Shown: positions 20,679-36,902 of the stretch, one piece after another | Position numbering within the stretch: the stretch's first letter is position 1 | Layout of the letters: every line of letters begins with the position of its first letter | Notes under the pieces: model-generated | Seen by the model: the letters and a program-made list of their open reading frames with translations, nothing else | What the model was told of the DNA's origin: nothing | Database searches by the model: none | From: Candidatus Bathyarchaeia archaeon | Lineage (GTDB): Archaea > Thermoproteota > Bathyarchaeia > Bathyarchaeales > Bathycorpusculaceae | Direction: 5' to 3' | DNA length: 64,000 nucleotides | Assembly: GCA_049515895.1 (NCBI GenBank) | Contig: JBEKTQ010000003.1 | Span: forward strand, 1-64,000 | Made by a program: the position numbers and the translations under genes

Positions 20679-21005
20679 ATGGAAAACATTTACGCAGCGA
20701 TGCTCCTTCACAAGGCAGGAAAAGAAATAAACGAAGATTCGGTTACAAACGTTCTCAAAGCTGCAGGAATCACTGTTGACGTAGTTCAAATCAAAGCGCT
20801 CGTCGCTTCTCTTAGCGAGGTAAACATTGATGAGGCGCTTAAAGCAGCACCGACCATGATGGCAGCCGCTCCAGTTGCAGCTCCAGCAGCAGGTGCAGAA
20901 GCTAAGCCAGCAGCCGCCGCTCCAGAAGACAAGAAGAAGAAAGCTGAAGAAGAGAAAGCCAAAGAAGAAGCAGCGTTAGAAGGATTAGGCGCCCTATTCG
21001 GGTAA
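20679..21005 (+). CDS. rpl12: 50S ribosomal stalk protein P1/L12
   Basis: [11 protein letters not shown].., Ala-rich hinge, [14 protein letters not shown]-terminus. Confidence 0.97.
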
Positions 21006-21007
21006 AT
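20995..21007. repeat. attL core (13-bp direct repeat)
   Basis: TATTCGGGTAAAT, identical to 36890-36902; spans the rpl12 stop codon. Confidence 0.85.
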
Positions 21008-21019
21008 ACGCCGTTAATG

Positions 21020-21048
21020 GGTGATTTATTCACCATAATTTATTTTTT
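21020..21048 (+). terminator. Element-supplied hairpin and T-tract after rpl12
   Basis: GGTGA-TTTAT-TCACC followed by ATTTATTTTTT. Confidence 0.45.
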
Positions 21049-21050
21049 GG

Positions 21051-21407
21051 TCAAGTCTTAGTTTCTATTCGTTGACTCTCTTTAATAGTCTCAATCATTT
21101 TTGGCAAAAAGTCTATGAACTGCTCTTTCTCCGCATAAATTGACTTTTCAACAGCCTCGATTAAATTATTAATCAAAAGCCTATAGGGCCTAGTAACATT
21201 CTGAAGTTTATACTCTGTTACCTCATGCGTGAAAGTCTGCCATGCCTCTATTTCTGAAGCATCATAAAGAAAAATCACGTTGCCCTTGATCTCTCCATGA
21301 TTAGCTTTTGCCTTATCCGGTTTCCAGAGAACAACCAGGTTAACACCTAAACGGCCTAGGCAATCTTGCATCTGTTTTTGAACCTTAGCGATTTCAGCTT
21401 TAATCAT
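21051..21407 (-). CDS. Hypothetical protein with zincin-like HExxE motif
   Basis: HGEIKGNVIFLY...TFTHEVTE. Confidence 0.6.
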   Translation of the reverse strand: MIKAEIAKVQKQMQDCLGRLGVNLVVLWKPDKAKANHGEIKGNVIFLYDASEIEAWQTFTHEVTEYKLQNVTRPYRLLINNLIEAVEKSIYAEKEQFIDFLPKMIETIKESQRIETKT

Positions 21408-21712
21408 GGCCTAAAACTCCTATGTTCTTTAGTTTTTGGGAAAGCAAAACTGCATGTTGCCTGAACGTTTCCACTTTTTGAGAATGTAACTCAAGCGCGC
21501 ATTGTTGGGCTAAAAAGAAACTACCGCACAAAGACTAAGCATCCCCTGGAAGCCTTCGGCTGCCAATCTCAAGGTTTGTTTTCCTTCGCCAAGTTCTGCA
21601 GGATATACCGCCGCCGTGAGTGCACGAATAATTATCCTTCTTAAATTTGCCTTCTAATTTGCATTGATAATCAAACTTGCAAGGGTATGTTTCGAGAGAG
21701 TTTCTTTGTATG

Positions 21713-21921
21713 TTACCACGATTACCACGTTTAACATACTCAGAATAAGACCCCCCTACCCCTCTTTTCCTTAGTATATTGATTTGAACATTGACCACTG
21801 CTAGTTTATTGACTGTTTTTAGGAGTTTACTGTTAATCATTATCGTAATCTCCTATACTTTTTTCCTTTTTAGCAGTAGGGGTATCGTTTCCAAGTGTGG
21901 TAAGCGTGGTAATCGTGGTAA
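21713..21921. other. Putative replication origin (inverted iterons around an AT-rich core)
   Basis: TTACCACGATTACCACG (21713-29) is the exact reverse complement of 21905-21; inner CCCCTAC/GTAGGGG pair. Confidence 0.6.
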
Positions 21922-24028
21922 AACCCTCAGTCACTTTGTAGGCTTCTATCAGTTTTGGTGTTGAGTAGTAGCCTTTTCCAGATTTTAATAGGCCTTCACT
22001 TTGTAGAACTGCCATTAATGGACGCATTTCATTGGTGTCTGTTAACTGAAACTTTGATGCTAAGACCTCTTTTGTTACCCTGTTTTGCGTTACTATCCAA
22101 TGTAGTATTTTTCCAAGTTTCTCGATTTCGATTTTGCCTTGTGTTTTGGAAAAGATTATCGCAAAAATTTCTTTAATGTCTTCCAGGGTCAATTTTTCAA
22201 ATTTGTTTTCTTGCGCTAAAATTCCTAAACCGGCTTTCATGTATTCTTCTGTTAAGAAGTTTACAACAGTTTCAACATGCTCTGTCGTTACTGTGACAAT
22301 AGTGTTATCATCGTTTGTTGATAAGGTGCTATAAGCCAATCCAACACTTAGTCTTGCAATTTTCCATTTTACATCAATACTTACTAATGGGATTTCTTCG
22401 CTGAAAAACGTGTTATAGAGCTCTGTTGACATATCTAAAAGCAAGGTTACGGCTGCCTCTTCCCATTGAACTTTAGCGGTATTACTCCAACACCACTTCA
22501 AAACTTCAGCCATATAATCCAGCTTTGGGTCGTATTCTTCAGTTACCTTAACATTAAGTTTCTCAGGTGCAACGTCACGTTGATCTGAAAAAACTGCTAC
22601 GTCTAACCTTGCTATGCTTGTTTTGTCTAATACTGTTGACCATGCTTGCGCCGGATGTAAAAAGGAACTTAGGCTTTTCGTACTATACTTATCATCTTCT
22701 GGGTCTACAGCATTGTAGATTCTGAGTTGCCTAGTTCTTGCGTATGTCGTATTTTTTGCTGCCTTCGCTATACTGAGAACTCCACTCCTTTCGGCTTCCG
22801 CCAAAGCGGCCCAACAAGAAGCATTAAGTTTTTGCGATCCATCAATAGCTAAAAGTTTGCGATCCATAAGTGGCAAGAAACCCCAATCGATGAACCAGCC
22901 TTCCTTTTCAACTTGCGTTGCTGTTCCAGTTAAGCCAACGGTGCTTGCGGTTTCGGCTGAAATTATGGACCCTGCCTTTAAGAGTTTGGCTTGTTTCTTA
23001 ACCGTTTCAGATTTAGCTGTGGTTGTGTCACCGATAATTCCGCATTTGCCCCAGCCCTCTTTTACTTCACCGTCCAACTTAACGTATAGCGGTGTGAAGT
23101 AAGTTAGGAATCCCGCAGTAGCTATGTTCTCTCTGCCAACAATATGACTGTATAACTCGAAGTTGTCTAATATCCAGTTTAGCCGGTCACTTACGCTTTT
23201 CCCCTTAAAAACTTCTTTGAGAGCTGCCAATTTTGAAACATCAAAACTTAATATATCCTCTGGGAATTCCACTTTGTAAGCTAGCAAAGTTGTTTTTTGG
23301 GTTTTTGGATTCGGTAATGGTAAACCAACAATCCGCATGAGAGTGCTCGGTTGAAAAGTTAACGGTACATCGGAAGCGACATAAATGTCTAAGGCCTTGT
23401 ACTCGTACCCTTTTTCATCGACAATCTTGTCACCGCATTTTTCCAAAGTAAAAACTGGTGGTCTTACTCTCAACCGGTACATAGTGCGATATTGTTGTAT
23501 TTCTTCGATAATGGCATGGAGCGGATAGAATAAACTTTTTAGTCGTATTGCTTGAGTTTCTTTTGAAACATCTACTAAACCAATGTTCACTGGGTTATCT
23601 ACATCAATTACTTTAAAAACTTCATAATTGTCGTCCTCAGTTTCACCTTTTATAAATGCCTTGATTCTTGAAGGCACACCAATGTAGGCTATGCTTGTGC
23701 TTGAGATAACAGCTTCAATAATAACAGGTTTACCAACTAAAGAGGGATTCTCAATGTTATTGATATGCTCTAAAACTGACGGTTGATTTTCCAATTCCTC
23801 TTCTCTTGTTTCGTCACAAGCCTTCTTAAATTGCAACCTAGCTTGGTATCGTGCCATTTTTTCTTTGTATTCATTCAAGGCAAACTCGAAGTTTTCAGGG
23901 TTGCTATAATCTTCTTTTTTTGGCGGTGTTGGTTCTTCCAACCAAGGCTCTTTTACAGTCGGTATGTCTGAAGTGATATTATCTCTTGGCGATTTTTCTG
24001 GGGTTGCTGTCTGCTCTGGATCTGTCAC
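21833..24028 (-). CDS. Divergent MCM-family AAA+ helicase
   Basis: Walker A GDTTTAKS, STVGLTG, Walker B-like LLAIDG, SIAKAA (PS1), SIARLD (Arg finger), C-terminal wHTH-like segment. Confidence 0.8.
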   Translation of the reverse strand: MTDPEQTATPEKSPRDNITSDIPTVKEPWLEEPTPPKKEDYSNPENFEFALNEYKEKMARYQARLQFKKACDETREEELENQPSVLEHINNIENPSLVGKPVIIEAVISSTSIAYIGVPSRIKAFIKGETEDDNYEVFKVIDVDNPVNIGLVDVSKETQAIRLKSLFYPLHAIIEEIQQYRTMYRLRVRPPVFTLEKCGDKIVDEKGYEYKALDIYVASDVPLTFQPSTLMRIVGLPLPNPKTQKTTLLAYKVEFPEDILSFDVSKLAALKEVFKGKSVSDRLNWILDNFELYSHIVGRENIATAGFLTYFTPLYVKLDGEVKEGWGKCGIIGDTTTAKSETVKKQAKLLKAGSIISAETASTVGLTGTATQVEKEGWFIDWGFLPLMDRKLLAIDGSQKLNASCWAALAEAERSGVLSIAKAAKNTTYARTRQLRIYNAVDPEDDKYSTKSLSSFLHPAQAWSTVLDKTSIARLDVAVFSDQRDVAPEKLNVKVTEEYDPKLDYMAEVLKWCWSNTAKVQWEEAAVTLLLDMSTELYNTFFSEEIPLVSIDVKWKIARLSVGLAYSTLSTNDDNTIVTVTTEHVETVVNFLTEEYMKAGLGILAQENKFEKLTLEDIKEIFAIIFSKTQGKIEIEKLGKILHWIVTQNRVTKEVLASKFQLTDTNEMRPLMAVLQSEGLLKSGKGYYSTPKLIEAYKVTEGFTTITTLTTLGNDTPTAKKEKSIGDYDND

Positions 24029-24288
24029 TGTGTTATAGCTCCAGGGTTCTTTTTGTTGTACTCTATGAGGTCAGCCGGAATCTGAATACGATTCTCCAAA
24101 ATGCTGTTACTGTGAATGTATAAGTCAACTTCTTCCACTTGTTTTTGCAAAAGGAGAGCAACTCTTGAAGCATTTGCAAATCCACCAAAAATACGAGGTA
24201 TTTCAGTGTTATTTGACAGGTAAATTACTACCACAGAACCATTGCCAAGAGAGCGCACAAGGTGGCCTACAACATAGTAATAGCCCAA
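24025..24288 (-). CDS. Hypothetical protein
   Basis: Tightly packed in the operon (4-nt overlap with the MCM-like gene). Confidence 0.55.
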   Translation of the reverse strand: MGYYYVVGHLVRSLGNGSVVVIYLSNNTEIPRIFGGFANASRVALLLQKQVEEVDLYIHSNSILENRIQIPADLIEYNKKNPGAITQ

Positions 24289-24292
24289 ATTG

Positions 24293-25159
24293 TCATTTCT
24301 CCTCTGTTTTTTCTAAAGCCTTAGAGAAACTCCACCGCGCTGCTGCCTGCAATTCTTTAATTTGTTGGTCCGAGAGTTTACCGATAACAAGAATGTAGTC
24401 AAGGTCTCCGTTTTCTTTCTTTGCAACACTATATGAAAAGCTGTACTTTGCAACCATAGGTTCTAAGACTTTTGGGATCAGAAAATTAGTGATTGTGGGG
24501 CCGTCTATTTTGAATGGATGCTCTGGACAAATACTTATCTCATCCTCGAAAACGTTCAACATGCCTATGGCTTTCAAGCCTTCGCATAACGGGAACTGCC
24601 GTAACCCTTCCATCTTCAGAGTATCTTTGACTATTGGCACATGAGGAATAGGCTGCTCTTTTTGAGGAGTTGGTGTAACGTTTTCAGGGATTTTGCTTTG
24701 TGTTTGTACTTGAGTTTTTTTGGTGCGGTAGTCATCAATCAAGGTTGCTAACCATTTCGCTGGAATCAGTTTTGCAAAAGCATTCCTTTCAGCTTTGTTA
24801 ACTGCTAATATGTACGCAAAGGGCTTTTCCTTTTCGACACTGCTCGCGCCGATAACATCAATGCGGTTCTGAAGATCACGCATTTTTATTGTTACTCGGA
24901 TTTCCTTGTCCGTTTCTTCAATGTGGACATCGAGGATTTCTACATTGCCTCTATGTCGAATTGCTTCTTTGACACCGGCATAAGACAAGTTAGTAACTCG
25001 TTTGCCTTGAATCGTAACATCATAAACAAGGTCTTCTAAGATTTCGCCGCGCATTTCAGCTAAGATTTGGTTTTCATCTCTATGGTCAAGAACTTGAAAG
25101 ATTTGGGTTCGGTCTTCAGTCTTTGCTTCAGTTTTTGTCTGTTGTTCTGTTTCAGCCAA
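24293..25159 (-). CDS. Putative Rad52/Sak-like single-strand annealing protein
   Basis: LSYAGVKE...beta strands...IGAS...LAVNKAERNAFAKLIP resembles the SSAP core; linker plus C-terminal domain. Confidence 0.45.
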   Translation of the reverse strand: MAETEQQTKTEAKTEDRTQIFQVLDHRDENQILAEMRGEILEDLVYDVTIQGKRVTNLSYAGVKEAIRHRGNVEILDVHIEETDKEIRVTIKMRDLQNRIDVIGASSVEKEKPFAYILAVNKAERNAFAKLIPAKWLATLIDDYRTKKTQVQTQSKIPENVTPTPQKEQPIPHVPIVKDTLKMEGLRQFPLCEGLKAIGMLNVFEDEISICPEHPFKIDGPTITNFLIPKVLEPMVAKYSFSYSVAKKENGDLDYILVIGKLSDQQIKELQAAARWSFSKALEKTEEK

Positions 25160-25162
25160 CTT

Positions 25163-25321
25163 CTAGGCACCTCCACTGTTATTCTGTTTTCCGCATCCTT
25201 GGCCACAGCTTTTGTTTCGCGCATTGGTAAAATAACCCAAATTACACTTTGAGTATTGGAAATGAACGCAATCAGCGCAGGACTCAGGTTTTTCGGGTTT
25301 CTTAGGAAGAAAACCGTTCAA
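25163..25321 (-). CDS. Small Cys-rich (Zn-finger-like) protein, not in ORF track
   Basis: (M)NGFLPKKPEKPESCADCVHFQYSKCNLGYFTNARNKSCGQGCGKQNNSGGA fills the operon gap. Confidence 0.5.
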   Translation of the reverse strand: MNGFLPKKPEKPESCADCVHFQYSKCNLGYFTNARNKSCGQGCGKQNNSGGA

Positions 25322-25344
25322 TGATACACCAAAACAAGGCAAGG

Positions 25345-25536
25345 CTAGGCCTCCTTTGTTTGGATGGTTATGTATTGGAAAAAAATGTCTTTTTCGTCAT
25401 TGTACATCTTTGGTGAAGTTGCTTCGCAGTTAAAAACAGTTTTTAGACAGTTGAAAACTTGGTCGATAATCGCCTTATTTTTTGAAGTTACTTTTACGGT
25501 TGTTTCAAAATTTGATCTGTCTTCTTCTATCACCAT
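25345..25536 (-). CDS. Small protein, paralog of 27731-28021
   Basis: VKVTSKNKAIIDQV..TSPKMYNDEKDIFFQY aligns with VKISSPDVNFLDQV..TSAKMFNSETKQFFEF. Confidence 0.65.
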   Translation of the reverse strand: MVIEEDRSNFETTVKVTSKNKAIIDQVFNCLKTVFNCEATSPKMYNDEKDIFFQYITIQTKEA

Positions 25537-25587
25537 ATACTATATCACTAATAGAAAAAAGGAAAAAAAAGAAATTCCAGTAGATAA

Positions 25588-27072
25588 TCACGGTTCTGGC
25601 TCTCTTTTAAGAAAACGTTGGATTGATGCTTCTATACTGCCGTTGTCTATAGCTTCTTGTAAACCGTTTTTTATGTCAAGTATTATTTGTTTTGTATCAA
25701 GTTGCTGTTTGAACGCATTGAGATTTTTCTTTTCTTTAACTGCTTGCACTAAACAACCTTGCGGAAAACCTAAATCATACTTTTCCCGCGTCCACTTCTC
25801 TTTTTTCTCATTGTACAGTATCCATAGAGCAGAGGTTAACAACTGACGGCTTGCTGTATATTGCCATTGTATTTCTTCTATTTGATCCTGATAGGGTTTT
25901 TCCATATTTTCTTTTTGTTGTTCTAAATCACTAAGTTGATCTTCCAGTTCAGCGATTTCGTCAGCTATCCCTTCTGTTTTCTTTTCCATTTCGGACTCAA
26001 TAGGGCTAACACGTTCACTATATTCGTCATAAGATAAGTATTCGGTAGGTAGCTCTTGCGGAACTGCTAAATCTTCTTCAGAGGTATCGCAATTATCAAT
26101 AGCATACATCAAAGATTGCAATGCTTCTTTAGGTGCATTATTCCATGCTGTAGTAACTATTTCGTTTATTCGGTCTACCTCCGAAAGATACTTTAAAAGT
26201 TCTGTAGCTACGATTTCCCTGATTTTGTCGTGTCCTTGTGGTTGTGCTGATATTGCTTCGATTTCTAGGCCATAAGCGCCTTCTATGCCATACTTGGCTA
26301 ACCACTTGTCACTGTTAAAGTCTATTCCCTCACAACTTAGTTTTCTGCCTCTTTTAATTGGATATTTTTGTACGTCTAAGATTTCTGGTGTAGCATGTTC
26401 AACGTTAACGCCTATTCTATAATGTTTGCTTACGGTTAATCCAAAGGTTTGGCACTTACTAACAAACTCCTGGTCTATAGCAAAACCAAAGGGATCATAG
26501 TCAGTCAACGAAAAAATAACCACTTCAGTTATACCTTTTTCCTGAAGCAGCCGTAACATGTGCTCAATACCTGCTCCTTTGCTCCAGCCACCACCGCTTA
26601 AGATATTGATGTTAAAGAGTTCTTGCAAAGGCAATAAATGAACATACACAGCGTCTTTTTCAACGAATAACAAAATGTTGCTCCAGCATTGCGCTTGATT
26701 CTGATTGACGTTATAAGTTTCTTTTAGCATGCGAAACTCATTTATGCCTAAATCCGCGTAAGCTAACCGTCCTTCCTTAACCATTTTCGCTAGAACTGCC
26801 TCAAAAGTCTTCATGTATTTTTCTGAGCGTTTGCGTTCAATCTTCAGCAATATTGGCTTAATTGGGTTATACCAAACCTCGCGGCAACCTCTTTGGTCAG
26901 ATAACGGATAATGCATGGCTTTAGTAGCTAAAATTACAGCTTCGATTAAACTGTTAAAATCAACCAAGTAACCTTTTCTTACCCATTGCGACATTTTTTG
27001 AGGGAAAGCTGCGATTAACTGCTCTGGAGTCATGGCTTGCAGTTGCATCAATGTATAGATATATTGGTTCAC
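25588..27072 (-). CDS. Spo11/Topo VI-A-like protein (5Y-CAP + TOPRIM) with C-terminal coiled coil
   Basis: REVWY (catalytic Tyr position), FVEKDAV, SGGGW, LTDYDPFG, LEIEAI. Confidence 0.75.
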   Translation of the reverse strand: MNQYIYTLMQLQAMTPEQLIAAFPQKMSQWVRKGYLVDFNSLIEAVILATKAMHYPLSDQRGCREVWYNPIKPILLKIERKRSEKYMKTFEAVLAKMVKEGRLAYADLGINEFRMLKETYNVNQNQAQCWSNILLFVEKDAVYVHLLPLQELFNINILSGGGWSKGAGIEHMLRLLQEKGITEVVIFSLTDYDPFGFAIDQEFVSKCQTFGLTVSKHYRIGVNVEHATPEILDVQKYPIKRGRKLSCEGIDFNSDKWLAKYGIEGAYGLEIEAISAQPQGHDKIREIVATELLKYLSEVDRINEIVTTAWNNAPKEALQSLMYAIDNCDTSEEDLAVPQELPTEYLSYDEYSERVSPIESEMEKKTEGIADEIAELEDQLSDLEQQKENMEKPYQDQIEEIQWQYTASRQLLTSALWILYNEKKEKWTREKYDLGFPQGCLVQAVKEKKNLNAFKQQLDTKQIILDIKNGLQEAIDNGSIEASIQRFLKREPEP

Positions 27073-27728
27073 GATAAAGCCCTCCGAATGGTTAGAAGGT
27101 CTTTTCTGTACGCTTCATGGAGTGTTTTTAAATCGGGTTTGCTTGATTGCTGGATTAGCTTGTAAACTTCCAGTTCTTCTATTGTTACGGCGTAACATTT
27201 TTGCGGTGTAGGTATAGGTTGCGGAATCGAATTTGATAGGATTCTTGCGTTAGCAAAAGTGATTTCTTTCCGCTCAAGTTTTGTCTGAGTTTCTTCAGGT
27301 AGTTTAAGCAATAAAAGGCGCTGTGTAACATAGGCTCTGCTTTTCTTAATGACCGCTGCTATTTCCTCATGCGTTTGCCCTTTTTCAATGCGCCTCTGAA
27401 ACTCTTTTGCTAACTCCATATCAGAGAGGTCGTTTCTTTCCAGATTCTCAATTAACTGCAGGTCTTTGGCCGTGGCTTCATCCATTTCCCTTACAATGCA
27501 CTTGATTGTCAATAGATGTGCTATGCGGTGAGCTCTAAAGCGTCTTTCACCATGAACAATAACATATTTGCCTTCACTCAGGGGTCTAACCTGAATCGGC
27601 TGCAATAACCCATGTTGCTTGATACTATCCGCTAACTCTTCTAACGCCTGCGAATCAAAATATTTCCGTGGCTGCTCTGAATCAGCGATTATGCATGTCA
27701 GTGGTAAGTCTAAAATTTGCTCGGTCAA
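27069..27728 (-). CDS. ParB/Spo0J-family protein
   Basis: QPRKYFD..ELADSIKQHGLLQPI..HGERRFRA..LIENLERNDL, HTH EEIAAVIKKSRAYVTQRL. Confidence 0.93.
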   Translation of the reverse strand: MTEQILDLPLTCIIADSEQPRKYFDSQALEELADSIKQHGLLQPIQVRPLSEGKYVIVHGERRFRAHRIAHLLTIKCIVREMDEATAKDLQLIENLERNDLSDMELAKEFQRRIEKGQTHEEIAAVIKKSRAYVTQRLLLLKLPEETQTKLERKEITFANARILSNSIPQPIPTPQKCYAVTIEELEVYKLIQQSSKPDLKTLHEAYRKDLLTIRRALS

Positions 27729-27730
27729 AG

Positions 27731-28021
27731 TTACTGAGCCTCCTTTAGTTTTGGTGCCACGCTGACGAACTCGAAAAACTGCTTGGTTTCAGAATTGAAC
27801 ATCTTGGCGCTTGTAGGTGCGACGGCGAAACCAATAGATAGGTAGGCTATGACTTGGTCGAGAAAGTTAACGTCTGGGCTGCTAATCTTGACGATTGTAG
27901 CGTTTGGAAATTTAGGTTTCAGTTTTTTTTCTTCTTTCGATAATTCAGTTGGGTTCTTACAAAAAACTCTAGGGTTTGAAATTTTGCTTACTGGGCTCGA
28001 TTCTAATTCTGTTTCTACCAA
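27731..28021 (-). CDS. Small protein, paralog of 25345-25536
   Basis: See paralog alignment; ends 2 nt before parB start. Confidence 0.65.
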   Translation of the reverse strand: MVETELESSPVSKISNPRVFCKNPTELSKEEKKLKPKFPNATIVKISSPDVNFLDQVIAYLSIGFAVAPTSAKMFNSETKQFFEFVSVAPKLKEAQ

Positions 28022-28446
28022 TGTGTTTTTACCTTATGGACCGCTCAAAGCGAGCGTATCCACAAGAAAAATATACTATATACGAAATCGTTAGCACATC
28101 TGCTAATTCGAACTGTTCGATAGGTAAAGATACCAGACTCTGGTGAACTTTACAAGCCGCTTGTGTGGGGGAAGATTATCAGACTCTGATGAGGTAAAAG
28201 GTTTATGAACAGTTAATAAAAATGCCTTTCTCGTTATACGAACCAATCTGCTGAAGCAGTTCAGCAGACTGTTAGTACTCAAGATACTATCGACTTCTTT
28301 CTCTTCATGTTTTTCTGCTTCTCTCGTAAATATGGTTATCAGAAAGTTTGGTCGCACATGAAACATGGCTGAATAGAAAAAACTGTTGGGCAACTAACTT
28401 TTCTAAAAGTGTGTTCAAGCTAAAAAATAAGAGAGGGGAAGGAATT

Positions 28447-28665
28447 TTAGTTGGCGCTTTTCAGCTCAAATAAGTAGCCTTTGCTTGTTTGTAGTGCTCG
28501 GATTTTGTCGTTCAATGACATTTTTAATAGAAGACCCCTGGCTGTTTGCCAAGTAATCTTCAAGTTGAACGCGACAAATCCGATGCTGACCGGCATCTTA
28601 CTGTTTTCCAACAGTTCTAAAGTCTTTTTCTCATTCTCTTCTGCGACCATTTTAAAACATTGCAT
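28447..28665 (-). CDS. Winged-helix DNA-binding protein
   Basis: PVSIGFVAFNLKITWQTARGLLLKM..KGYLF; GAGGTG SD before the Met at 28665. Confidence 0.65.
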   Translation of the reverse strand: MQCFKMVAEENEKKTLELLENSKMPVSIGFVAFNLKITWQTARGLLLKMSLNDKIRALQTSKGYLFELKSAN

Positions 28666-28703
28666 TTGTTTCACCTCTTTCCTCTCTATACGAAAAATGC
28701 CAA

Positions 28704-28853: not shown

Positions 28854-29234
28854 TTACGCTCTCTCTAATATTTGATAAACGAACTCTGGAACTTTCTCCT
28901 TAAGCATTAACTCACAGAACCTTATCGCTGTTCGCTTGTTACCGTCAGTGAAGGGATGCTGCTCTGCAACAACTAAAGCAATCTCCAAGGCGATCTTTGA
29001 TTCCAAGTTATCAAGGCAACCGTCATAGCGGATCGTGCCGGTTGAAAAGCCTTTGTTGATTTCTATTAACTTGTTTCTTATCTGCTCTGAAGTTAGGTCC
29101 ATAAGATTTCTTCCTCTACTTGAAAGGTGAAAGTTTTTCCAACCGTTGCTTCCCACCGCGCCGTCTTCCTGTAGGTCTTCTATGGTGTCGTTTTCTCTTG
29201 CCTTCGGAATTTTTCTCTTACTCTTTCTAGGCAT
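28854..29234 (-). CDS. Fic/Doc-family toxin
   Basis: HPFTDGNKRTA Doc-type motif. Confidence 0.85.
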   Translation of the reverse strand: MPRKSKRKIPKARENDTIEDLQEDGAVGSNGWKNFHLSSRGRNLMDLTSEQIRNKLIEINKGFSTGTIRYDGCLDNLESKIALEIALVVAEQHPFTDGNKRTAIRFCELMLKEKVPEFVYQILERA

Positions 29235-29245
29235 AGTGTTACGGC

Positions 29246-29392
29246 CTACTCCTTCTTTTTTGCTGCTTCTTGAAACTCTGTTAGGGCCAGCTCGACCAAG
29301 TGGCTTCTGTTTCGATACTTTTTGGTTTCAACCTGCTTGTCGATCCACTCAACTAGTTCCTTGTCTATTGTGACGCTAATCGATTGCTTCAT
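29246..29392 (-). CDS. Ribbon-helix-helix protein, probable antitoxin (not in ORF track)
   Basis: MKQSISVTIDKELVEWIDKQVETKKYRNRSHLVELALTEFQEAAKKKE. Confidence 0.85.
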   Translation of the reverse strand: MKQSISVTIDKELVEWIDKQVETKKYRNRSHLVELALTEFQEAAKKKE

Positions 29393-29505
29393 ACTTTGCA
29401 ATACATAATCAACTCCTTTAAATGCTTTATACGATAAAATATGTAATGCAAAGGCTTATATATTTTACCCTATAATAATAAGAATACACAAGGAGAAATA
29501 AGAAT

Positions 29506-29853
29506 ATGGAAAAAACAGAAACTTTTAAAATGTCACCTGAAGAAATTTTGGATACAATAGAAAACTTGCAACAATACCTCAAACCTTGTAAACATTGCCG
29601 ACATGGCATCAGATCAGAGAAACCCTACATAGCTATGACTAATGTTCCAATTCCGGACTCAGTGGACCTAAAGAAATTCAAAGAAGGCACCGCAGCGTAT
29701 CAAAAAGCGTTAGCTACAACCGCTTGTAGGACCTGCATTGCCATCCAGGCGCTCAGAAACTTGCCGAGAGATAAACAGTTGGCCTTTGCCAAAGAACCAA
29801 ACTCAGAACTACTTGCTGAAGGTCTAGGGAGAAATGAAGAATGTCTGAATTAG
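29506..29853 (+). CDS. Zn-binding hypothetical protein
   Basis: CKHC and CRTC pairs. Confidence 0.6.
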   Translation: MEKTETFKMSPEEILDTIENLQQYLKPCKHCRHGIRSEKPYIAMTNVPIPDSVDLKKFKEGTAAYQKALATTACRTCIAIQALRNLPRDKQLAFAKEPNSELLAEGLGRNEECLN

Positions 29854-29993
29854 AGCTGGAATCCGTGACCGTTAAAGTGCCAAAAAGCTTCCTCAAAACC
29901 GTAAAGGACTACATAGCAAGAACAGGATACTACAACGACTTAAACGAGTTTGTTATGGAATCGCTGAGAGAACGAATTCTGCAAACATTATGA
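29841..29993 (+). CDS. Ribbon-helix-helix protein (not in ORF track)
   Basis: MSELELESVTVKVPKSFLKTVKDYIARTGYYNDLNEFVMESLRERILQTL. Confidence 0.8.
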   Translation: MSELELESVTVKVPKSFLKTVKDYIARTGYYNDLNEFVMESLRERILQTL

Positions 29994-30232
29994 TCTTAAC
30001 CTTCTTTTTTTTTATTTTTTCTTTTGTAAGGGCGGCCAAGAGCCCGATAACTCAAAACTCATCTCATCATGCCCCTTGAACCAGGGCTACTACCTAGGGC
30101 TTCTTGGTTTTGTTTCGCCCTTTTTTCTCTGTTTTTCTTTTGTAGAGGAGTCGGGGGCTTTGTTGCATATCGCGATAGTTCAATTTTTTTCACTTCCCTC
30201 GGCTTCTCTATTTTTCTAGAGAGGTTTGAGAC

Positions 30233-30454
30233 TTGGTTAAGAAACAAAAGGCAAAAAGACCTGCTTTCATTCTTGTATCTTTGGTTCTGCTCGTAATAGG
30301 CGTAGCACTTCTATATGGCTCAATAACGCTGTTATCAATTAGTTCGGGGTCTTTGGCGATTGTTTTTTCCAGTGTACCTTTGCTTCGTATGCTGGAGTTT
30401 GATCTTGGTGCTGTATTTGTCTTCTCAGGATCGTTAGTTCTGAGTGTCGCCTAA
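30233..30454 (+). CDS. Small two-TM membrane protein
   Basis: Basic N-terminus plus two hydrophobic helices; GAGGT SD. Confidence 0.65.
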   Translation: MVKKQKAKRPAFILVSLVLLVIGVALLYGSITLLSISSGSLAIVFSSVPLLRMLEFDLGAVFVFSGSLVLSVA

Positions 30455-30466
30455 GAGGTTTCAAAA

Positions 30467-30994
30467 TTGAGCTATCGCGGTCAAAAAAAGGGCTCTTATG
30501 CTCCGTATAAGAAATCTCGTTTTTCATGGGTTAGGTCTAAAAAGGCAAAACCAAAAGAAAACATTACTGACATCAAAGACGATCCTGAGCCTCAATCATC
30601 TAAAGATGATTCAGAACCTCAAAAAGTTAGGGATGAACCAGAACCTCAAACAGTAGCTCCCGAAACTATCAGTTGGCAAAATAGACCCTTGGCTCCGGAC
30701 ATAAGGATTTTTCTTGTTAGACCAGAAACTCTAACAGTCACCGGTGCTAGAACGATTTTGCCTGTTGACCTAACCCTGCAAAAGGAACTTGGGTATCAAA
30801 TCGCACTTTTGGCTGAAAGCCAGCGGCTTAACATCGAAGCGCAATCGGGTGACGGCTCAGTAAAAAAGTATCGCATCCTAAAAATTAGCTCTCAGTTACC
30901 AACAGACAAAAATTTGTCTTTCAGCGATTATCCTCTTGTCGGAAACATAAAAAACAGTCTAGGGCCTCACGGTTACACGATTTTGCCTCAGTAA
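30467..30994 (+). CDS. Hypothetical protein with basic/acidic N-terminus
   Basis: MSYRGQKKGSY.., DDPEPQ repeats. Confidence 0.65.
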   Translation: MSYRGQKKGSYAPYKKSRFSWVRSKKAKPKENITDIKDDPEPQSSKDDSEPQKVRDEPEPQTVAPETISWQNRPLAPDIRIFLVRPETLTVTGARTILPVDLTLQKELGYQIALLAESQRLNIEAQSGDGSVKKYRILKISSQLPTDKNLSFSDYPLVGNIKNSLGPHGYTILPQ

Positions 30995-31018
30995 TCATTT
31001 TTCTATTGAGGTTAGAGA

Positions 31019-31189
31019 TTGTCTTATAAAGGCAACAAAAAAGGCAATTATGGCTACAATCAGCGACGCGGCGGCCAAAGTGGGTTTCATAGCTACGGCA
31101 AAAGCAAGAATCGAAATGACAATGAGAGTTTTGAAAATCAGTCTCAGGAGCCTGAGAACCAAGCTGAGAATCAAGAGACAGAAGAATGA
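31019..31189 (+). CDS. Microprotein paralogous to the N-terminus of 30467-30994 (not in ORF track)
   Basis: (M)SYKGNKKGNYGYNQRRGGQSGFHSYGKSKNRNDNESFENQSQEPENQAENQETEE; GAGGT SD. Confidence 0.6.
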   Translation: MSYKGNKKGNYGYNQRRGGQSGFHSYGKSKNRNDNESFENQSQEPENQAENQETEE

Positions 31190-31358
31190 TGCTAAGTTTT
31201 TAGCGTCTCAAATCCTTTTTTTCTCTTTTTTAATTTTTTTGCTTAGTGTGTCAATGTTCCTAGGGCTTGTTAGGGGTTCTGTGTATTTAACGTCACCTAC
31301 CTAAAAATTAGTTAATTCCTACCTTTTTGTGAAAAATCGTCACCTAAGTAAATTACTT

Positions 31359-31814
31359 CTATTTTGGCATATTCGGCAAACTGGGCATCGGTTGATTTTC
31401 CTTATCTTCTTTTTTCTTACTCAGATATAACCCGATTCCAAAGCTTACGCTAAAAACAGTAATAGCAACCCCGAAAGCCACAGGAACCAATCCGACAAAA
31501 TAAGCCAATATAGAAAAAGCAACACTTGCAAGACCTATAGCCCATGTTATCGTTTTTGCCTCAATTTTACTTCCAGCGTAAACATTTACTTGGGCTCCGT
31601 GAACCCCTGAACCGCTTGTCAGTTGAGTTGTTTGCATTTGCCAAATGAGGTTTTGATAGAGTTGGAGCAATTCTTTATGCCTTTCAACTAATTCGTCATA
31701 TCTGCCTCTTTGATAATCCTCACTTATCTCCGAGCTCATAGATGTTTTTCCCTCAAGTCTTATTCGTTTTGAAGGGCTATTTAAAACAACCGAACAACAA
31801 GTTACTACATCCAT
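31359..31814 (-). CDS. Coiled-coil + two-TM membrane protein
   Basis: Probable start at MSSEISED; two C-terminal TM helices. Confidence 0.6.
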   Translation of the reverse strand: MDVVTCCSVVLNSPSKRIRLEGKTSMSSEISEDYQRGRYDELVERHKELLQLYQNLIWQMQTTQLTSGSGVHGAQVNVYAGSKIEAKTITWAIGLASVAFSILAYFVGLVPVAFGVAITVFSVSFGIGLYLSKKKEDKENQPMPSLPNMPK

Positions 31815-31964
31815 CTAGGGTTGTGCGGAAGAGCTATTTTTTGAAAACTGCAAGTTTTCTATGATTAATGCCTTTTACCGTTAGCCGAAGCTTCTATGCA
31901 AGCTTTTGTTAACATGACAAAACTTAAAACCTCTTAGATATAATGAAAAGAGGGGTTACTTGTC

Positions 31965-33050
31965 ATGATTCATGTTGGATTTGATAGCGCACCAATAAGG
32001 AAAGTACCTGTTCTTCCAGATGGTAAAAAAGGTTCAGAGTTTGTTGCTAACTTGGGTGTCTCAGTTTCCGTTGCTGATAAAGAAAGGTTTGAGGTTGCAT
32101 ATGATATTGCAATTGAACATGCATTCAAAAAAATTGGGGCAACACGGAAAAAGAGGTTTTATAAAGGCGCTCATTTAGTCGGCCAAGTTTCTGAACATGC
32201 ACCTCAAGTTATAGCTATGATGCTTAACGAATTAGCCCCCGAGATTTTGCATGTAGATGTATATTGTGCATATTATTCACAAGAATACATTTCTCTCTAT
32301 GGACAAAGTGAACCACAACAACTCTCACCTCCAGTCTTTGTAAAGAAGACACAAGGCGCTTTCCCACATGTGTGTGCTTGGTGGTATGTCTCTAAATATG
32401 AGCAAACAGAAAATCCACTTACACTTGAAATAGATTCAATGCAAACCGCTACTACTCCAGCATGGCGAAAATTGTCTAGTATCCCAGAGAAAAGCATCAA
32501 AATAGAATTTTACTTCGGTGGTGACGAATGTAACCCAATTATTTCATTAGCAGATTTGATTCTTAAGCTAATTAGAATCTTTCACAGGGGAACAGTTGAA
32601 GGGCGCTCTCTGCTTGAACCATTATACGATAGATGCACAAGTTACTGTTCTCAAAGAAAAGTCTGGTTTCACAATTTAGGATCAAGAGGCTTTATTTTAA
32701 AAGCAACAGCCCCAGATTTAGATATTCAAGCGAATACAAAACAATTCATCAAACATCCTCTCACATTCTATTATGCAACAAATAAACCCATGGAAGGCAA
32801 AGATGAAATTGCAAACGCCCTATATTTATCTCCGATTTACAACGCAATTGCTTACAATGTTTCTTGCGTTAAAGGTGGCATGAAGAAGTTTTCACCTACA
32901 GAAGACATACACATATGGAATCCTGAACTCGATAGCATTGTTCCCTTCACAAAGGAAGATAAAGAGCAATTAAAACGACTTGAAACCTACGGGTACACTC
33001 TGCCCCAACTGAAGGAACCGAAGGACTTGATTAAGTCCTCTAAATTCTAA
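31965..33050 (+). CDS. Hypothetical protein, possible RNase H-like (DUF3800-like) fold
   Basis: N-terminal VGFD, mid EIDS, GDECNPIISLADLI. Confidence 0.5.
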   Translation: MIHVGFDSAPIRKVPVLPDGKKGSEFVANLGVSVSVADKERFEVAYDIAIEHAFKKIGATRKKRFYKGAHLVGQVSEHAPQVIAMMLNELAPEILHVDVYCAYYSQEYISLYGQSEPQQLSPPVFVKKTQGAFPHVCAWWYVSKYEQTENPLTLEIDSMQTATTPAWRKLSSIPEKSIKIEFYFGGDECNPIISLADLILKLIRIFHRGTVEGRSLLEPLYDRCTSYCSQRKVWFHNLGSRGFILKATAPDLDIQANTKQFIKHPLTFYYATNKPMEGKDEIANALYLSPIYNAIAYNVSCVKGGMKKFSPTEDIHIWNPELDSIVPFTKEDKEQLKRLETYGYTLPQLKEPKDLIKSSKF

Positions 33051-33813
33051 ATCTAAAGTAGTAAGACGCACATTCCGCGTACAAGAGCTACCCTTTGGTC
33101 TTAGGGTGCCCATTATGTCCATGCACATAAGTTGTATATAAAACTTAGTCCGAAACAGTATGGAGACACAATCTGAACAGCAAAGCAATAAGTCAATGTT
33201 TTCTTTTTTCGTGTGAGGAGCTGGGAGCGATTTGCAACAATCCATTTCTTGACTCAATTAAATTATTACCTCGCTCTCAGCTTCTCTTTATGCTTATGAA
33301 CGGCATTGAGGTTTCTCAACTCATTTACCCTACTCTAAACACTCACAATAGTTAAGACGCTATCGCTCTATATGCTATAGTCAGAACAGCTTTATCCTTT
33401 AGGTCATGGCAATTTATCATCAAGCTTCACGCCTAGAAGGTTTTTTTGTTTTTAAAAAACTGAAAACGGTAACGCACGTTACATTTTCCTCTTATCCTCG
33501 TTTAACATTATTTAACCGCTAAAACCCTCTATTTACCATATATAAAAGGTGTACGTACGGGTTGCGTAACGCAGCGCCCATGCAAAATTAGTCTTTTACT
33601 AGCGCTAAAATATTTGTATTGTGTTTCAGGTAGGGTAATGACATAAAAGAGCTTTGTAACGCACATATAAAGGAGTCCATGCTTGAGCGTTACCTTTTAG
33701 GCTTTAGGCTTGGCTTTCAGGTGTCAGTTTGGGGTTTTGCATGGTAAAAGTCCATGATTAAAACGTGAAGAAATAATGTTAAGGAAACATGTAGAAAAAT
33801 GGTGTTAGAAAGT

Positions 33814-34785
33814 TTAATCCCTGTCGCTCTTTTCAGGTTTCCAAGGCACTACATCTTTCTGTTTCTCTATAAGTTCGTTTGTCATGCACTCGGGAAAAGG
33901 CATTGGAAAATTATGGCTAAAGAAATAGTCGTTAACCATAACTTTTTGATTGTAACTACCATGCTCAATCAAGTATTTCACTATCAGCTCCTTTTCTTCT
34001 TTGCTTGAAGTGTGATCCATACCCATTTGGCTAATCCGGTCAAGTATTTTTTGAGGTGTGTTGATGAATTGGTTAATTCCATGTAACATTCCATCATGGA
34101 TATGGAAGGCTCTTTGGTTATGCTCAAACAACGTATGTTTGGGAAGGTAACTGCATTTACAACTATCTTTTTCGGATATGTAACGCTCTTGTACCGCAGG
34201 GCCTTGGTCAACATTTTCAGCTTCTGGTATGGTTACGCCGTATTTTTCTGCTCGGAGTTTGTCACGTATTTTTTCAGCCTTTTTGCTTTTCTGCCAAGTT
34301 TCCAACCAATTTATGAAGGTATTTTTGTCACGTTCAGTAAAGTCGTCTTGAGAACTTACTTTGTATGTCAATAATCCTTTTATGATTGTATCCACGTTCT
34401 CAACTGTCAACGGTGTTGTTTTTTGGGCTACAGCGTTAATCAAGTCAAACCTGCTACTCAACGCTTTTTTGATACTTTGTAATTCTTGCTGGTGCTCTTC
34501 AACTTCAGAAACAAGTCTTTCATAAGAAACGTCAATCTGGATGTGCGCTCCCGATTGCTTAGCTTCATTTTCGATTAGCTCTGTAACCTTTGCCGTCATT
34601 TTGCCCTCTGGAGATATTTTCTTCAGAGCCTCTTTGATTGCTGGAGTCACACGCATGTTTAGGGTTACAAGTTTATCTTTGGATGGCTCTGGTTCTTTTG
34701 CCCTCTCAGATTCCTTATTTTCTTCAGGTTTTTTAGTTTCGTCATCGTTAGATTTTTCGTTGTCAGTCAATTTTCTTCTCTCCAA
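33814..34785 (-). CDS. RHH-like + coiled-coil protein
   Basis: VTLNMRVTPAIKEALKK..KVTELIENE. Confidence 0.6.
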   Translation of the reverse strand: MERRKLTDNEKSNDDETKKPEENKESERAKEPEPSKDKLVTLNMRVTPAIKEALKKISPEGKMTAKVTELIENEAKQSGAHIQIDVSYERLVSEVEEHQQELQSIKKALSSRFDLINAVAQKTTPLTVENVDTIIKGLLTYKVSSQDDFTERDKNTFINWLETWQKSKKAEKIRDKLRAEKYGVTIPEAENVDQGPAVQERYISEKDSCKCSYLPKHTLFEHNQRAFHIHDGMLHGINQFINTPQKILDRISQMGMDHTSSKEEKELIVKYLIEHGSYNQKVMVNDYFFSHNFPMPFPECMTNELIEKQKDVVPWKPEKSDRD

Positions 34786-35225
34786 ATTATGGTTACGGTT
34801 GGCCCATCTTTCTTAGTTTGCGCACGCGCTTTGAATTGTTCTACGCAACGAGGGCATAAAATCCAAATGAATTCTTTTTCTTCGTGCCCTACAACCTCAG
34901 TTTTTCCGTTTGTATTTACCTTGGTTTTAATGCTGAACCGTTGATGTCGTACAAATTGATGTGCTATGTTTCTGCAGGATGTCGTATCGCATGGTTCAGA
35001 AAGACCAGGACATTGGTACAGCTCCAATATATGCGCGTCTTGTCCTCTTAATTGCTCTTGCGAAAACTGCATATTTTCAAGGAGTTGATCGCATACGAAG
35101 CAGCCAATAGTATCGACTCTTTTGTCTTGTAAGGAAAAAATACACGGTTGGTTGCAACACGCACAGAATCGCATAGCGTATTTTTCTGCAGGTAAATCTC
35201 GGTCAAATTCATTCAAACTGCTCAA
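34767..35225 (-). CDS. Cys-rich Zn-finger protein
   Basis: CACC, CFVC, CPRC. Confidence 0.6.
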   Translation of the reverse strand: MSSLNEFDRDLPAEKYAMRFCACCNQPCIFSLQDKRVDTIGCFVCDQLLENMQFSQEQLRGQDAHILELYQCPGLSEPCDTTSCRNIAHQFVRHQRFSIKTKVNTNGKTEVVGHEEKEFIWILCPRCVEQFKARAQTKKDGPTVTIIWREEN

Positions 35226-35296
35226 ACTTAGTCGCCAATAGAAAAATAACGGAATATGGTTAGTCTCAGGTTAGGATTTTCAGGTTTTCGTTAGTT

Positions 35297-35527
35297 TCAC
35301 TTTGTAACTACTTGCTCACTCGTAGTTGTTTCTTGCTGAAGCGGTTTTTCTATGATTTGGAAAACTCCTATTATCCGGTGATTCTTGACGGCCTGCTCCA
35401 GTAGGTCTTGAATGCCAATAACATAAAGTCTCTTGTCTATCTCAATTTTCAGGGCTTGAAGGTCTTTATCGACCTGGGCCACGCCTATCTTTTCAAAGAC
35501 CAAGTACGTTTCTCTCCTAAATATCAA
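35297..35527 (-). CDS. Small hypothetical protein
   Basis: Directly follows the integrase. Confidence 0.5.
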   Translation of the reverse strand: MIFRRETYLVFEKIGVAQVDKDLQALKIEIDKRLYVIGIQDLLEQAVKNHRIIGVFQIIEKPLQQETTTSEQVVTK

Positions 35528-35528
35528 T

Positions 35529-36824
35529 TTATAGTTTCATTAAGAATTTATCATCATCTAGGGATTGAACCAAACTGTAGCCGTCCTCAAGTTTCTTGAG
35601 TAATTCAGTATCGCCTTTCACGATAATATTCTTGGGCTGTTGTTTCTGTATTTCTCTCGTTCTTATGCCTTCAGCGTCATCCTTTAGTTTGCGAAATTCC
35701 GTTATAGCCTCATCTGGGTCTTTAGCCCTTGCTAATACCTCTTCCAGCTTCCTTAATTGGTTAGGTTCATATCCCTGCAACCTTGCGAAGTCTAAAAGCA
35801 TTTGGCTTCTAAGTTTCTTCTCTTCAGTTGGAACAGCATAAACCGACAAGTGTGGAACAGCCTTACGGTATTCAGCTAAATGCAAATGTTCTTCAGCCTT
35901 GAAATAAGACATATCCAAATAAAGACCCTGGTGCCCCATCCAACGCTCGCGGTAAGAAGCGTCGACACCTATACAGTTTGAACGGAAATACTTTCTTAGG
36001 GTGTGAACATGAAGAACATAGAAGTAATTAGCTTTCTCGTTTAATCCTGCTTTCTTGAGTAACCTAGCCCAAACTTTCTCAAAAGCTGCTATACCGATGA
36101 AAGAACCTTTGTAAGTATAGTTAGTTACTAAGGGGCTTTCAGGGGTTATGATCTCTCCAGCGTTTTCTCTCTCAGCTAGATACTCTTGCAAAGCTGCTTT
36201 AGCTTCAGGGCTTATGAAAGTACAGAAAAAGCGTCCGGCTGCTCTACCTTTATTTGAGAATTTACGGCCACGTTTTCTTTCAACAGTTAACCGCGCCACG
36301 TCTGGGTAGTTTAAGTCAATATCTCCAACTTTCAAACTTAGAAAGGTGCCAATCCTTAAACCGCTGCTCGAATCTCCAAGAACCACAAACCGATCTCTGC
36401 ATCTCGTAGCATGATTAAGAAGTTTTTTCAGTTCTTCTTTTGTTGGCGCTCTATCCTCTTCCGTTATCTCGGTTGCTGTCGGTAGTTCAATCTTTGCCCA
36501 ATCAACCTTGACACCATTGAGATCAAGCCACTTTTTGACACCATAAACGTAAAGTCTAACTGACTTGTGGCTTCTTTCCATTTTGTCTAGAGCGTAGTCA
36601 ATAAAGGAATCAACCTTAGCTCCAGCATCCACTTTGCACTCAAGCATCGCTGTAAGCGCGGTTTCTGGATCTGAAAAACCTAAGTACATCACGAATCTTG
36701 ATATGCCATTGATATAATTAGAAACTGTTTTCTCGCTGCCCATTCTTCTTGAGCCGGTTATGGCTTCGTTAATTTTTCTTACACTGGGGTACTTTTCGAT
36801 ATATTCTCTTGCGAATCTTCGCAT
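35529..36824 (-). CDS. Tyrosine recombinase/integrase
   Basis: GLRIG (R), HTLRK (HxxR), MGH, MSY (Y); N-terminal core-binding domain; adjacent to attR. Confidence 0.93.
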   Translation of the reverse strand: MRRFAREYIEKYPSVRKINEAITGSRRMGSEKTVSNYINGISRFVMYLGFSDPETALTAMLECKVDAGAKVDSFIDYALDKMERSHKSVRLYVYGVKKWLDLNGVKVDWAKIELPTATEITEEDRAPTKEELKKLLNHATRCRDRFVVLGDSSSGLRIGTFLSLKVGDIDLNYPDVARLTVERKRGRKFSNKGRAAGRFFCTFISPEAKAALQEYLAERENAGEIITPESPLVTNYTYKGSFIGIAAFEKVWARLLKKAGLNEKANYFYVLHVHTLRKYFRSNCIGVDASYRERWMGHQGLYLDMSYFKAEEHLHLAEYRKAVPHLSVYAVPTEEKKLRSQMLLDFARLQGYEPNQLRKLEEVLARAKDPDEAITEFRKLKDDAEGIRTREIQKQQPKNIIVKGDTELLKKLEDGYSLVQSLDDDKFLMKL

Positions 36825-36889
36825 TTTTATCCCTGAATATGCTTACGCATAAGTTCTATTTATAGTTAATCACCCTTTAGCGTAGGGCT

Positions 36890-36902
36890 TATTCGGGTAA
36901 AT
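36890..36902. repeat. attR core (13-bp direct repeat)
   Basis: TATTCGGGTAAAT, identical to 20995-21007. Confidence 0.85.

Follow-up and report, generated by a model that had tools for sequence, protein, structure and literature searches.

How a 15.9-kb block of DNA came to lie directly behind the gene of a ribosomal stalk protein, and whether it may still move, are the questions raised by the stretch of a Bathyarchaeia genome analysed here (contig JBEKTQ010000003.1, positions 1 to 64,000, termed the window, 64,000 nucleotides (nt) in length). The window belongs to a Bathyarchaeia metagenome-assembled genome from peat soil, which was labelled G000. The block at 21008–36902 is very probably an integrated mobile element of plasmid-like character, which was placed at the end of rpl12 by its own tyrosine integrase. 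The features of the insertion, including its attachment sites on the left (attL) and on the right (attR), are as follows.

20679–21005, plus strand: rpl12, the target gene, encoding the archaeal L12/P1 stalk protein of 108 amino acids (aa) (Pfam Ribosomal_60s PF00428, E 3.4e-15)
20995–21007, plus strand: attL core, an exact repeat holding the final three codons of rpl12, its stop and 2 extra nt
21008–21052, plus strand: element arm beside attL, a terminator-like site with a small hairpin (21020–21034) and a T-rich run, now 3' of the rpl12 stop
35529–36824, minus strand: tyrosine integrase, 431 aa, intact and reading into the element (Phage_integrase PF00589, 32.7 bits against a cut-off of 27.1, residues 128–300)
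36850–36889, plus strand: element arm beside attR, with a small dyad motif and the promoter region of the integrase, which has a TATA-like box; a similar arm is present in the related genomes G013, G045, G071 and G047
36890–36902, plus strand: attR core, an exact repeat
36903–36995, plus strand: native T-rich sequence, which is 3' of rpl12 in empty sites (14 of 14 relatives read) and is displaced by 15.9 kb here
36996–38183, minus strand: host gene of a 395-aa membrane protein, convergent with rpl12 in empty sites and beside rpl12 in 18 of 19 loci

The exact 13-mer TATTCGGGTAAAT was found at both places named in an earlier note on this DNA, namely over the end of rpl12 (20995–21007) and near the start of the integrase gene (36890–36902). 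No further match occurred in the window at up to one mismatch, and the motif was limited to these two places across the whole genome (3.18 Mb, all 53 contigs). The attL copy spans the codons CTA TTC GGG TAA (L-F-G-stop) that end rpl12, and the attR copy lies 65 nt beyond the integrase ATG (36824, minus strand). The insert measured 15,895 bp (21008–36902, with one core counted), and the G+C content was 0.37–0.42 between the cores, compared with 0.42–0.49 in most of the flanks. The target gene was uninterrupted, as the earlier note had also held: residues 1–108 all aligned to relatives, with identities of 72–92%. The tRNA scan returned 0 transfer RNA (tRNA) genes in the window, and therefore no tRNA target was involved; no Rfam match was obtained in 20000–38500 at E <= 0.1. 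A tandem or composite insert was considered and rejected, as the interior of the element held no degenerate core at up to 2 mismatches.

The tail of rpl12 had been proposed as the attachment site in the host (attB), with relatives expected to carry rpl12 beside the flanking membrane protein gene. Both proposals agreed with the empty sites. The 395-aa flanking protein was used as the query on 40 relatives, and loci were obtained from 19 of them; the gene was present in 23 of the 24 same-genus genomes searched. The distance between rpl12 and this gene was no more than 1.5 kb in 18 of the 19 loci, the exception being G013, which carries a related element. The junction was read in 14 loci and in G009, with L015, L018 and L019 outside the reading, and in all 14 loci as well as in G009 the rpl12 stop passed directly into the sequence that lies here to the right of attR. 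The empty loci ended rpl12 with ...GGCGCC CTA TTC GGG TAA and continued with the T-rich sequence AGCCTC...TTATTTTTAAC.AATTTTTCCC, which begins here at 36903, and in most of them the convergent membrane protein gene was reached ~90–110 nt further on. The empty-site junction is the left side of attL joined to the right side of attR, exactly as predicted.

Two observations concern the flanking gene itself. In L015 (G014) and L019 (G008), rpl12 was located downstream of the membrane gene on the same strand, not convergent with it, and this arrangement suggests a local inversion at the site. The label 'presenilin-like', which the earlier note had attached to the 395-aa gene, gained no support from Pfam or NCBIfam (no family at E <= 0.01) and stays unproven; the protein was multi-pass, its hydrophobic segments numbering about nine, and had a GLGD motif (289–292) but neither a YD nor a PAL motif.

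The catalytic residues of the integrase were R157 (GLR), H274 and R277 (HTLR), H298 (WMGH) and Y307 (DMSY), assigned by motif order with the beta-hairpin Lys not pinned down, and R157, H274, R277, H298 and Y307 were invariant in 8 of 8 aligned relatives. The NCBIfam model XerA_Arch (NF040815) matched at 3.3e-17 with 62.9 bits against an equivalog cut-off of 220, and the nearest PDB match was 4A8E, a XerA-like protein (6.7e-07). The identification of the integrase as XerA itself was rejected, its score being far below the equivalog cut-off, and the protein is described as XerA-related. Archaeal integrases comprise the SSV1 type, in which the gene is split on integration, and the pNOB8 type, in which the gene stays whole. 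An SSV1-type partitioning integrase was likewise rejected, given that the open reading frame (ORF) was whole (431 aa) and the core was 65 nt upstream of its ATG. Compared by behaviour alone, the enzyme resembles the non-partitioning pNOB8 type, with the attachment site of the element (attP) outside the integrase ORF and the ORF whole when integrated. The plasmid records gave one weak integrase match (30% identity, Nostoc), and a scan of genome contigs with the integrase as query returned 2 loci only.

The same site was occupied in other members of the genus. All 120 genomes of the genus were searched, and integrases with E <= 1e-90 were found in 12 of them. Five of the 120 (G000, G047, G071, G045 and G013) carried an integrase of the rpl12-site clade, in all five beside the core at rpl12, and the closest pairs of these five integrases were 76–82% identical. 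The earlier note had suggested checking whether integrase homologues also flank rpl12, and they do: all 4 other genus genomes with an integrase at least 76% identical had it at the same core and site. The core shared across the related elements, which bounds those of G013, G045 and G047, narrows to TATTCGGGTAA(A), 11–12 nt. In the metagenome scan, 2 more distinct integrases were found beside the core (L091 and L099), and the G047 and G013 types were found again.

The cargo behind these integrases varied. A complete 14.3-kb element was present in G013 on one 127-kb contig, in the same order and orientation as in G000; it shared the integrase (75–76%), the MCM-like helicase (79–81%) and the 115-, 288-, 87- and terminal 118-aa ORFs, and its middle differed from that of G000 and included a second tyrosine recombinase. 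The elements of G045 and G047 shared little besides the integrase (in G047 also the 118-aa ORF), ended at contig ends, and carried insertion sequence transposases and other cargo; their small overlap with G000 fits independent insertions. In G071, one empty and one filled contig were found that were 91% identical, with homology beginning 2 nt before the core. This pair was rejected as evidence of excision, as 91% identity denotes two strains in one bin. As a separate observation, 3.4 kb of additional DNA stood in G013 (L052 600–3930) between the membrane gene and the native sequence that follows rpl12, with genes for a beta-helix protein of 648 aa and a 4Fe-4S protein of 243 aa.

The contigs of four metagenome runs were compared with positions 20000–38000 of the window; these were Logan contigs, from which rare variants are dropped. 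The filled attR junction was bridged without differences in X1, the possible source sample, and in X3, a run of an independent study (record 24, 36465–37124), and the filled junction was present in the runs of three studies. In X2, three contigs starting at 36890 were preceded by GATTAGGCGCCC, the 12 letters of the rpl12 end, which is an empty-type junction; it matched the right flank of G000 over at least 30 nt. The element is likely active, because the integrase is intact, the cores are identical, the long genes are open, and the elements are patchily present (5/120) with differing cargo.

The following course of events would account for the locus. The integrase (35529–36824) would have recombined the attP of a circular element with the last codons and stop of rpl12 (attB), with strand exchange inside the shared TATTCGGGTAA(AT). 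The gene has thereby kept its ...ALFG-stop end, the second core copy is found at the far end of the element, and the element provides the sequence now 3' of the rpl12 stop. Short motifs of dyad or hairpin form were present in both core flanks within the element, along with AT-rich boxes that resemble a TATA box. The 5-bp hairpin (21020–21034) with its T-run is a weak signal, with 2 terminator-like sites found and 1.1 expected; a hairpin and T-run were also present 3' of rpl12 in G013, G045 and G047, with differing stem sequences. The arm motifs may be integrase arm sites, and may possibly also end the rpl12 transcript as a replacement terminator.

The genes of the element read almost all leftwards from the integrase. 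In all, 30 ORFs were scanned (Pfam 20, PHROGs 20, NCBIfam 10 and PADLOC 10). The coordinates of the features other than the integrase and the arms are given below.

21051–21407, minus strand: 118-aa ORF at the element end, conserved in related elements (homologues 73–79% identical at the matching end of G013 and G047; no Pfam or PHROG family)
21833–24028, minus strand: MCM-like helicase, 731 aa (Pfam MCM P-loop domain, E 8.8e-14; phrog_18685, 1.6e-32; phrog_10371 'DNA helicase', 2e-12)
24025–25159, minus strand: two ORFs downstream of the helicase, 87 and 288 aa long (respectively 32% and 57% identical to ORFs of G013, order kept; no family above threshold)
25588–27072, minus strand: 494-aa protein with a weak Toprim (Topo VI-A/Spo11-like) signal (phrog_6247 'DNA topoisomerase', 5.3e-07; Pfam PF21180, 0.0076, below cut-off)
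27069–27728, minus strand: ParB-like protein, 219 aa, putatively for DNA binding or partition (Pfam ParB_N, 1.8e-27, and HTH_ParB, 5.5e-14; PHROG ParB families down to 1.1e-37)
28854–29234, minus strand: 126-aa ORF with a Fic/DOC domain fragment (Pfam PF02661, E 4.2e-05, profile positions 65–93 of 93 only)
29506–29853, plus strand: 115-aa ORF kept in the G013 element (72% identity; no family)
30467–35527, no single strand: variable cargo, with ORFs of 175, 84, 151 (membrane), 361, 323, 152 (Cys-rich) and 76 aa (no convincing family in Pfam, PHROG, NCBIfam or PADLOC)

The MCM-like helicase is likely the replication protein, and it would act in replication together with its two conserved partners. 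The ParB-like and Toprim-like proteins would serve DNA handling or partition, with variable small genes making up the remainder. For the 494-aa protein, the Atlas gave virus-rich clusters with PF21180 (scores 0.88–0.89), and for the 361-aa ORF it gave DUF8203/DUF3800; these are leads only. The 175-aa ORF had 2 proteins in a set of 5.8 billion, itself being one of them. The statement of the earlier note that no capsid, terminase or conjugation gene is recognisable held in Pfam, PHROGs, NCBIfam and PADLOC: no capsid, portal, terminase, lysis, secretion or pilus family was found in the 30 ORFs, and no Pfam or NCBIfam family of VirB4/VirD4-type ATPases, pilins or other transfer genes was matched. 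No defence system was called, the PADLOC matches being weak and partial (ParB and the Fic fragment).

Further observations concern the cargo region. The ORFs at 30467–30994 and 31019–31189 (both plus strand) had near-identical basic N-termini, MSYRGQKKGSY and MSYKGNKKGNY. A 71-nt stretch (31277–31347) was 91.5% identical to positions 52630–52700 of contig C6 of G000 and contained two copies of CGTCACCTA..TAAA, 47 nt apart. All four runs had contigs, deeper than the element, that join 31347 to 31772 or exit the window at 31328 and 31796; the joint 31347>31772 has a shorter side of 20 letters only and allows no interpretation, and the depths are per contig and not copy numbers. A short repeat common to other DNA seems to flank the 151-aa membrane ORF. 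Elsewhere in G000, homologues of the 101-aa (68%), 76-aa (62%) and 175-aa (39%) ORFs of the element were encoded on contig C31 (~21650–24860), probably another related mobile element, and a distant homologue (28%) of the 118-aa ORF was found on contig C12 (~63780–75530) near two more tyrosine integrase genes.

Several results weigh against the reading as an integrated plasmid-like element, and they were considered together with the other explanations of the block. The 13-nt repeat alone was within chance, as exact direct repeats with a length of at least 13 nt formed 60 pairs in the window (39 of them spaced 5–40 kb) and 50 block shuffles gave a mean of ~31. The notion that the repeat is fortuitous and the block a native variable region of the chromosome draws on this excess, and its probability is nevertheless negligible: the sequence of the empty sites breaks off and continues precisely at the core in all 14 relatives read, the G+C content drops inside, the integrase starts 65 nt from the core, and related integrases were located at the same core in four other genomes. 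The insertion was accepted as real because of the position of the core, the G+C drop and the empty sites in relatives, and not because of the repeat alone. A further question is whether the block is a fixed island, which integrated once by the same route and then lost the ability to excise. No attP joint (36902 back to 21008), the circle junction that the earlier note had proposed to search for, was listed in the contigs of the four runs, which is weak evidence given the loss of rare variants from Logan, and contigs passed both junctions without the break expected of the attP form. No excisionase was identified. Moreover, the Fic/DOC fragment hints at some decay, ORF-poor stretches were present (e.g., ~33050–33810), and the same filled junction recurred in the runs of three studies. 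The empty-type junction in X2 speaks against fixation, and its source may be cells lacking the element, or a close relative or strain, and not necessarily excision. The integrase, however, is full length with all catalytic residues kept, the cores are identical over 13 nt, and the helicase, ParB and other long ORFs are open. Furthermore, the clade occurred in 5 of 120 genomes, always at the rpl12 site, and the cargo differed where it was compared (G013 and parts of G045 and G047), indicating recent turnover. A fixed island is accordingly regarded as rather improbable.

The block might instead be a provirus of an undescribed archaeal virus with divergent structural proteins, e.g., one of spindle-shaped or pleomorphic form whose small capsid proteins are embedded in the membrane. 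Most cargo ORFs, and about half of all ORFs, were without a family, leaving room for a novel capsid, and small, strongly hydrophobic ORFs were present at 30233–30454 and 30995–31174 as well as in the C-terminus of the 151-aa ORF (31359–31814). The helicase and the Toprim-like protein matched best in PHROG and virus-rich clusters, and spindle-shaped and other proviruses of Bathyarchaeia have been reported (PMC10848311). On the other hand, 0 of the 30 ORFs had a structural, packaging or lysis family (PHROG, Pfam and NCBIfam hidden Markov models), relatives of the integrase and the helicase were absent from IMG/VR and from 50,697 phage records, the hydrophobic ORFs were not kept in the G013 element, and ParB better suits a plasmid-like lifestyle. 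A provirus is thus considered unlikely. For the plasmid-like element, the replication and partition roles are read from family matches, of which the Toprim signal is weak. The earlier note had called the block a cryptic integrating plasmid or satellite. The features of a cryptic integrated element (CIE) were indeed found, namely an integrase, attachment sites, an MCM-like helicase and no viral or conjugation family, whereas no free or circular form was seen, and the plasmid or satellite nature is what we infer. The CIE assignment is provisional because the class is defined by absent features.

The origin of the rpl12 specificity was explored through the next-closest integrases, which were not at rpl12 and were 60–66% identical in genomes and up to 77% identical in metagenome contigs. 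A conserved, co-directional gene of ~70 nt was found upstream of each of them. It had a terminal stem, a C box (GATGATGA), a 12-nt guide, a D'-like box, a C'-like box, a guide, a D box and again the terminal stem. On the strength of box motifs read by eye, the gene appears to be that of a box C/D guide small RNA (sRNA); Rfam gave no match at gathering level on the sRNA loci L061, L062 and L074 or on L083. The sRNA-like gene was present at L061, L062, L065–L070, L092, L094, L097, L098 and L100–L113. An empty sRNA site was found in G000 itself (contig C5 ~31920–31989; L074 ~2920–2990), where the homology to the filled loci stops. The last 17–22 nt of the sRNA gene recurred 11–32 kb downstream of the integrase in G447, G012 and G129, and the attachment sites of the sRNA-site elements were therefore defined. 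A direct-repeat search within single sRNA-site loci found no repeat. In the five genomes searched for the far end of the sRNA-site element by synteny with the G000 flank, 2 matched, hundreds of kb away. The guides paired best with the 23S ribosomal RNA (rRNA) of the relatives G003 and G014: 10–11 of 12 positions paired near 2024 and 9 of 12 near 2049. G000 itself is without assembled rRNA. Shuffled guides reached the observed score in 21–36 of 300 trials, and the pairing is a hint only.

In a tree of 24 rows, which leaves out G074 (115 residues aligned) and G058 (frameshifted), the five rpl12-site integrases formed one clade (99/98) nested among nine sRNA-site integrases. In a quick tree of 46 rows, with identical rows merged, seven rpl12-site integrases formed one clade (SH-aLRT 98), with the sRNA-site integrase of L092 as its sister (88). 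Two distant integrases from the genus served as the root, and one change of site label sufficed on the 46-row tree. Because the integrase family otherwise has its place at a box C/D guide-RNA gene, namely at the 3' end, rpl12 would be the derived target and looks like a recent one, and these sequences are most simply read as one switch of site, away from the sRNA gene and to rpl12. Both targets are short conserved 3' ends of genes of the translation apparatus. The attachment regions of L092 and rpl12 were alike at 10 of 14 positions in one gapless register; another register was about as good for other members, and the similarity is only a hint. Such partial similarity may have been the route of the target jump. 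As an observation apart from these, an integrase of the sRNA sister group (76% identical) lay in L093 (1923–3649) directly after the gene of a 128-aa protein, not after an sRNA gene or rpl12, and this place would be a third target or else the attP context of a free form.

The elements also differ in the way they are oriented. For G047 as for the sRNA-site elements, the target gene, the core, a small hairpin or dyad, a TATA-like box and the integrase follow one another in one direction, and G000 shares these parts with the sRNA-site elements, its integrase being nested among theirs. The rpl12 elements are unlike the sRNA-site elements in having a protein gene as the target, and G000, G013, G045, G071, L091 and L099 have the integrase at the distal end of the insert, with a core that is inverted with respect to the integrase. 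In G047 (L053 = G047:C8 2955–4630; L054 = G047:C15 2097–3997; also L089 and L090), the orientation is opposite to that of G000: rpl12 is followed directly by the integrase gene, which reads in the same direction, and the 118-aa end gene is found towards the membrane gene. On the side of the membrane gene, the ~35 nt that border the core were alike in G000 and G047, although the genes beyond differ. A short attP segment seems to have been inverted within the element, and the insert as a whole is flipped by this. In the tree, G047, G000 and the remaining members form a polytomy, which is compatible with one inversion and does not prove it. We lean slightly towards a history in which one integrase lineage of peat Bathyarchaeia switched from the 3' end of a C/D sRNA gene to the stop region of rpl12 and then flipped its attP core, with most descendants inserting the opposite way.

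The earlier note had named tRNA genes as the main targets of archaeal integrases, which is mostly so; insertion into the 3' ends of protein genes was nonetheless already documented. A survey of thaumarchaeal elements (Krupovic et al. 2019, PMC6563490) counts 68 in its main text: tRNA genes house 39 of them, another 15 lie between genes, and the 3'-distal parts of protein genes hold the remaining 14, these last having been verified by empty sites in relatives, with the genes of EF-2, a Zn-finger protein, AsnC and others as targets. The attachment sites in this account begin at 8 bp, with a median of 17 and one worked example of 13 bp, and its CIEs are tyrosine-integrase elements, mostly <20 kb (median 17 kb), some with MCM helicases and none with viral or conjugative hallmarks. 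The present element is like these CIEs in its integrase, small size, short attachment site, MCM-like helicase and location at a protein-gene 3' end; it is unlike them in its host (Bathyarchaeia) and its target (rpl12), and the two are likened by description, not by sequence. The words 'ribosomal protein' occur 0 times in the main text of PMC6563490, the supplementary tables being outside this scope. A review of archaeal recombinases (PMC8371274) notes coding-region targets, and 'ribosomal' occurs in it 0 times. In the literature searched, no archaeal element at a ribosomal protein gene or a C/D sRNA gene was found, with the provision that supplementary tables may list more targets. No integrative plasmid-like element of Bathyarchaeia was described in that literature either, where viruses alone are described for the group.

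The bacterial L7/L12 and the archaeal L12/P1 proteins are functional counterparts that belong to different families. According to Ambroset et al. (2016, PMC4701971), streptococcal integrative and conjugative elements (ICEs) as well as integrative and mobilizable elements that use tyrosine integrases are inserted precisely at the 3' end of rplL (L7/L12), rpsI and rpmG with the product unchanged, and the rationale given there is that a conserved essential gene offers a harmless and widely available site. The rpl12 element is like the streptococcal rplL elements in that the repeat holds the end of the gene only and the product is unchanged, and the same rationale applies. The streptococcal ICEs differ from it in being bacterial and conjugative (PMC4701971); no conjugation genes were found here.

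The mechanism and its logic are thus known; within the literature searched, supplementary tables excluded, novelty attaches to the target gene, to the host group and to the integrase lineage. For Bathyarchaeia, an abundant uncultured group, the locus provides a cleanly delimited and apparently intact mobile element. The 13-bp attB and the integrase have a modest practical value as a possible genetic tool for Bathyarchaeia or as a retargetable integrase scaffold. Through this element, the stalk-protein gene joins the integration sites of archaea, in parallel with the use of rplL by streptococcal ICEs, and supports the rule that integrases choose the short, highly conserved 3' ends of essential genes, where insertion is harmless and many hosts are available. 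Moreover, the relatives at guide-RNA sites turn a single case into a small evolutionary series with a change of target and a change of orientation. If this history is true, sister enzymes that are ~77% identical and have different sites would be a natural series for finding the residues and arm sequences that set the target of an archaeal integrase.

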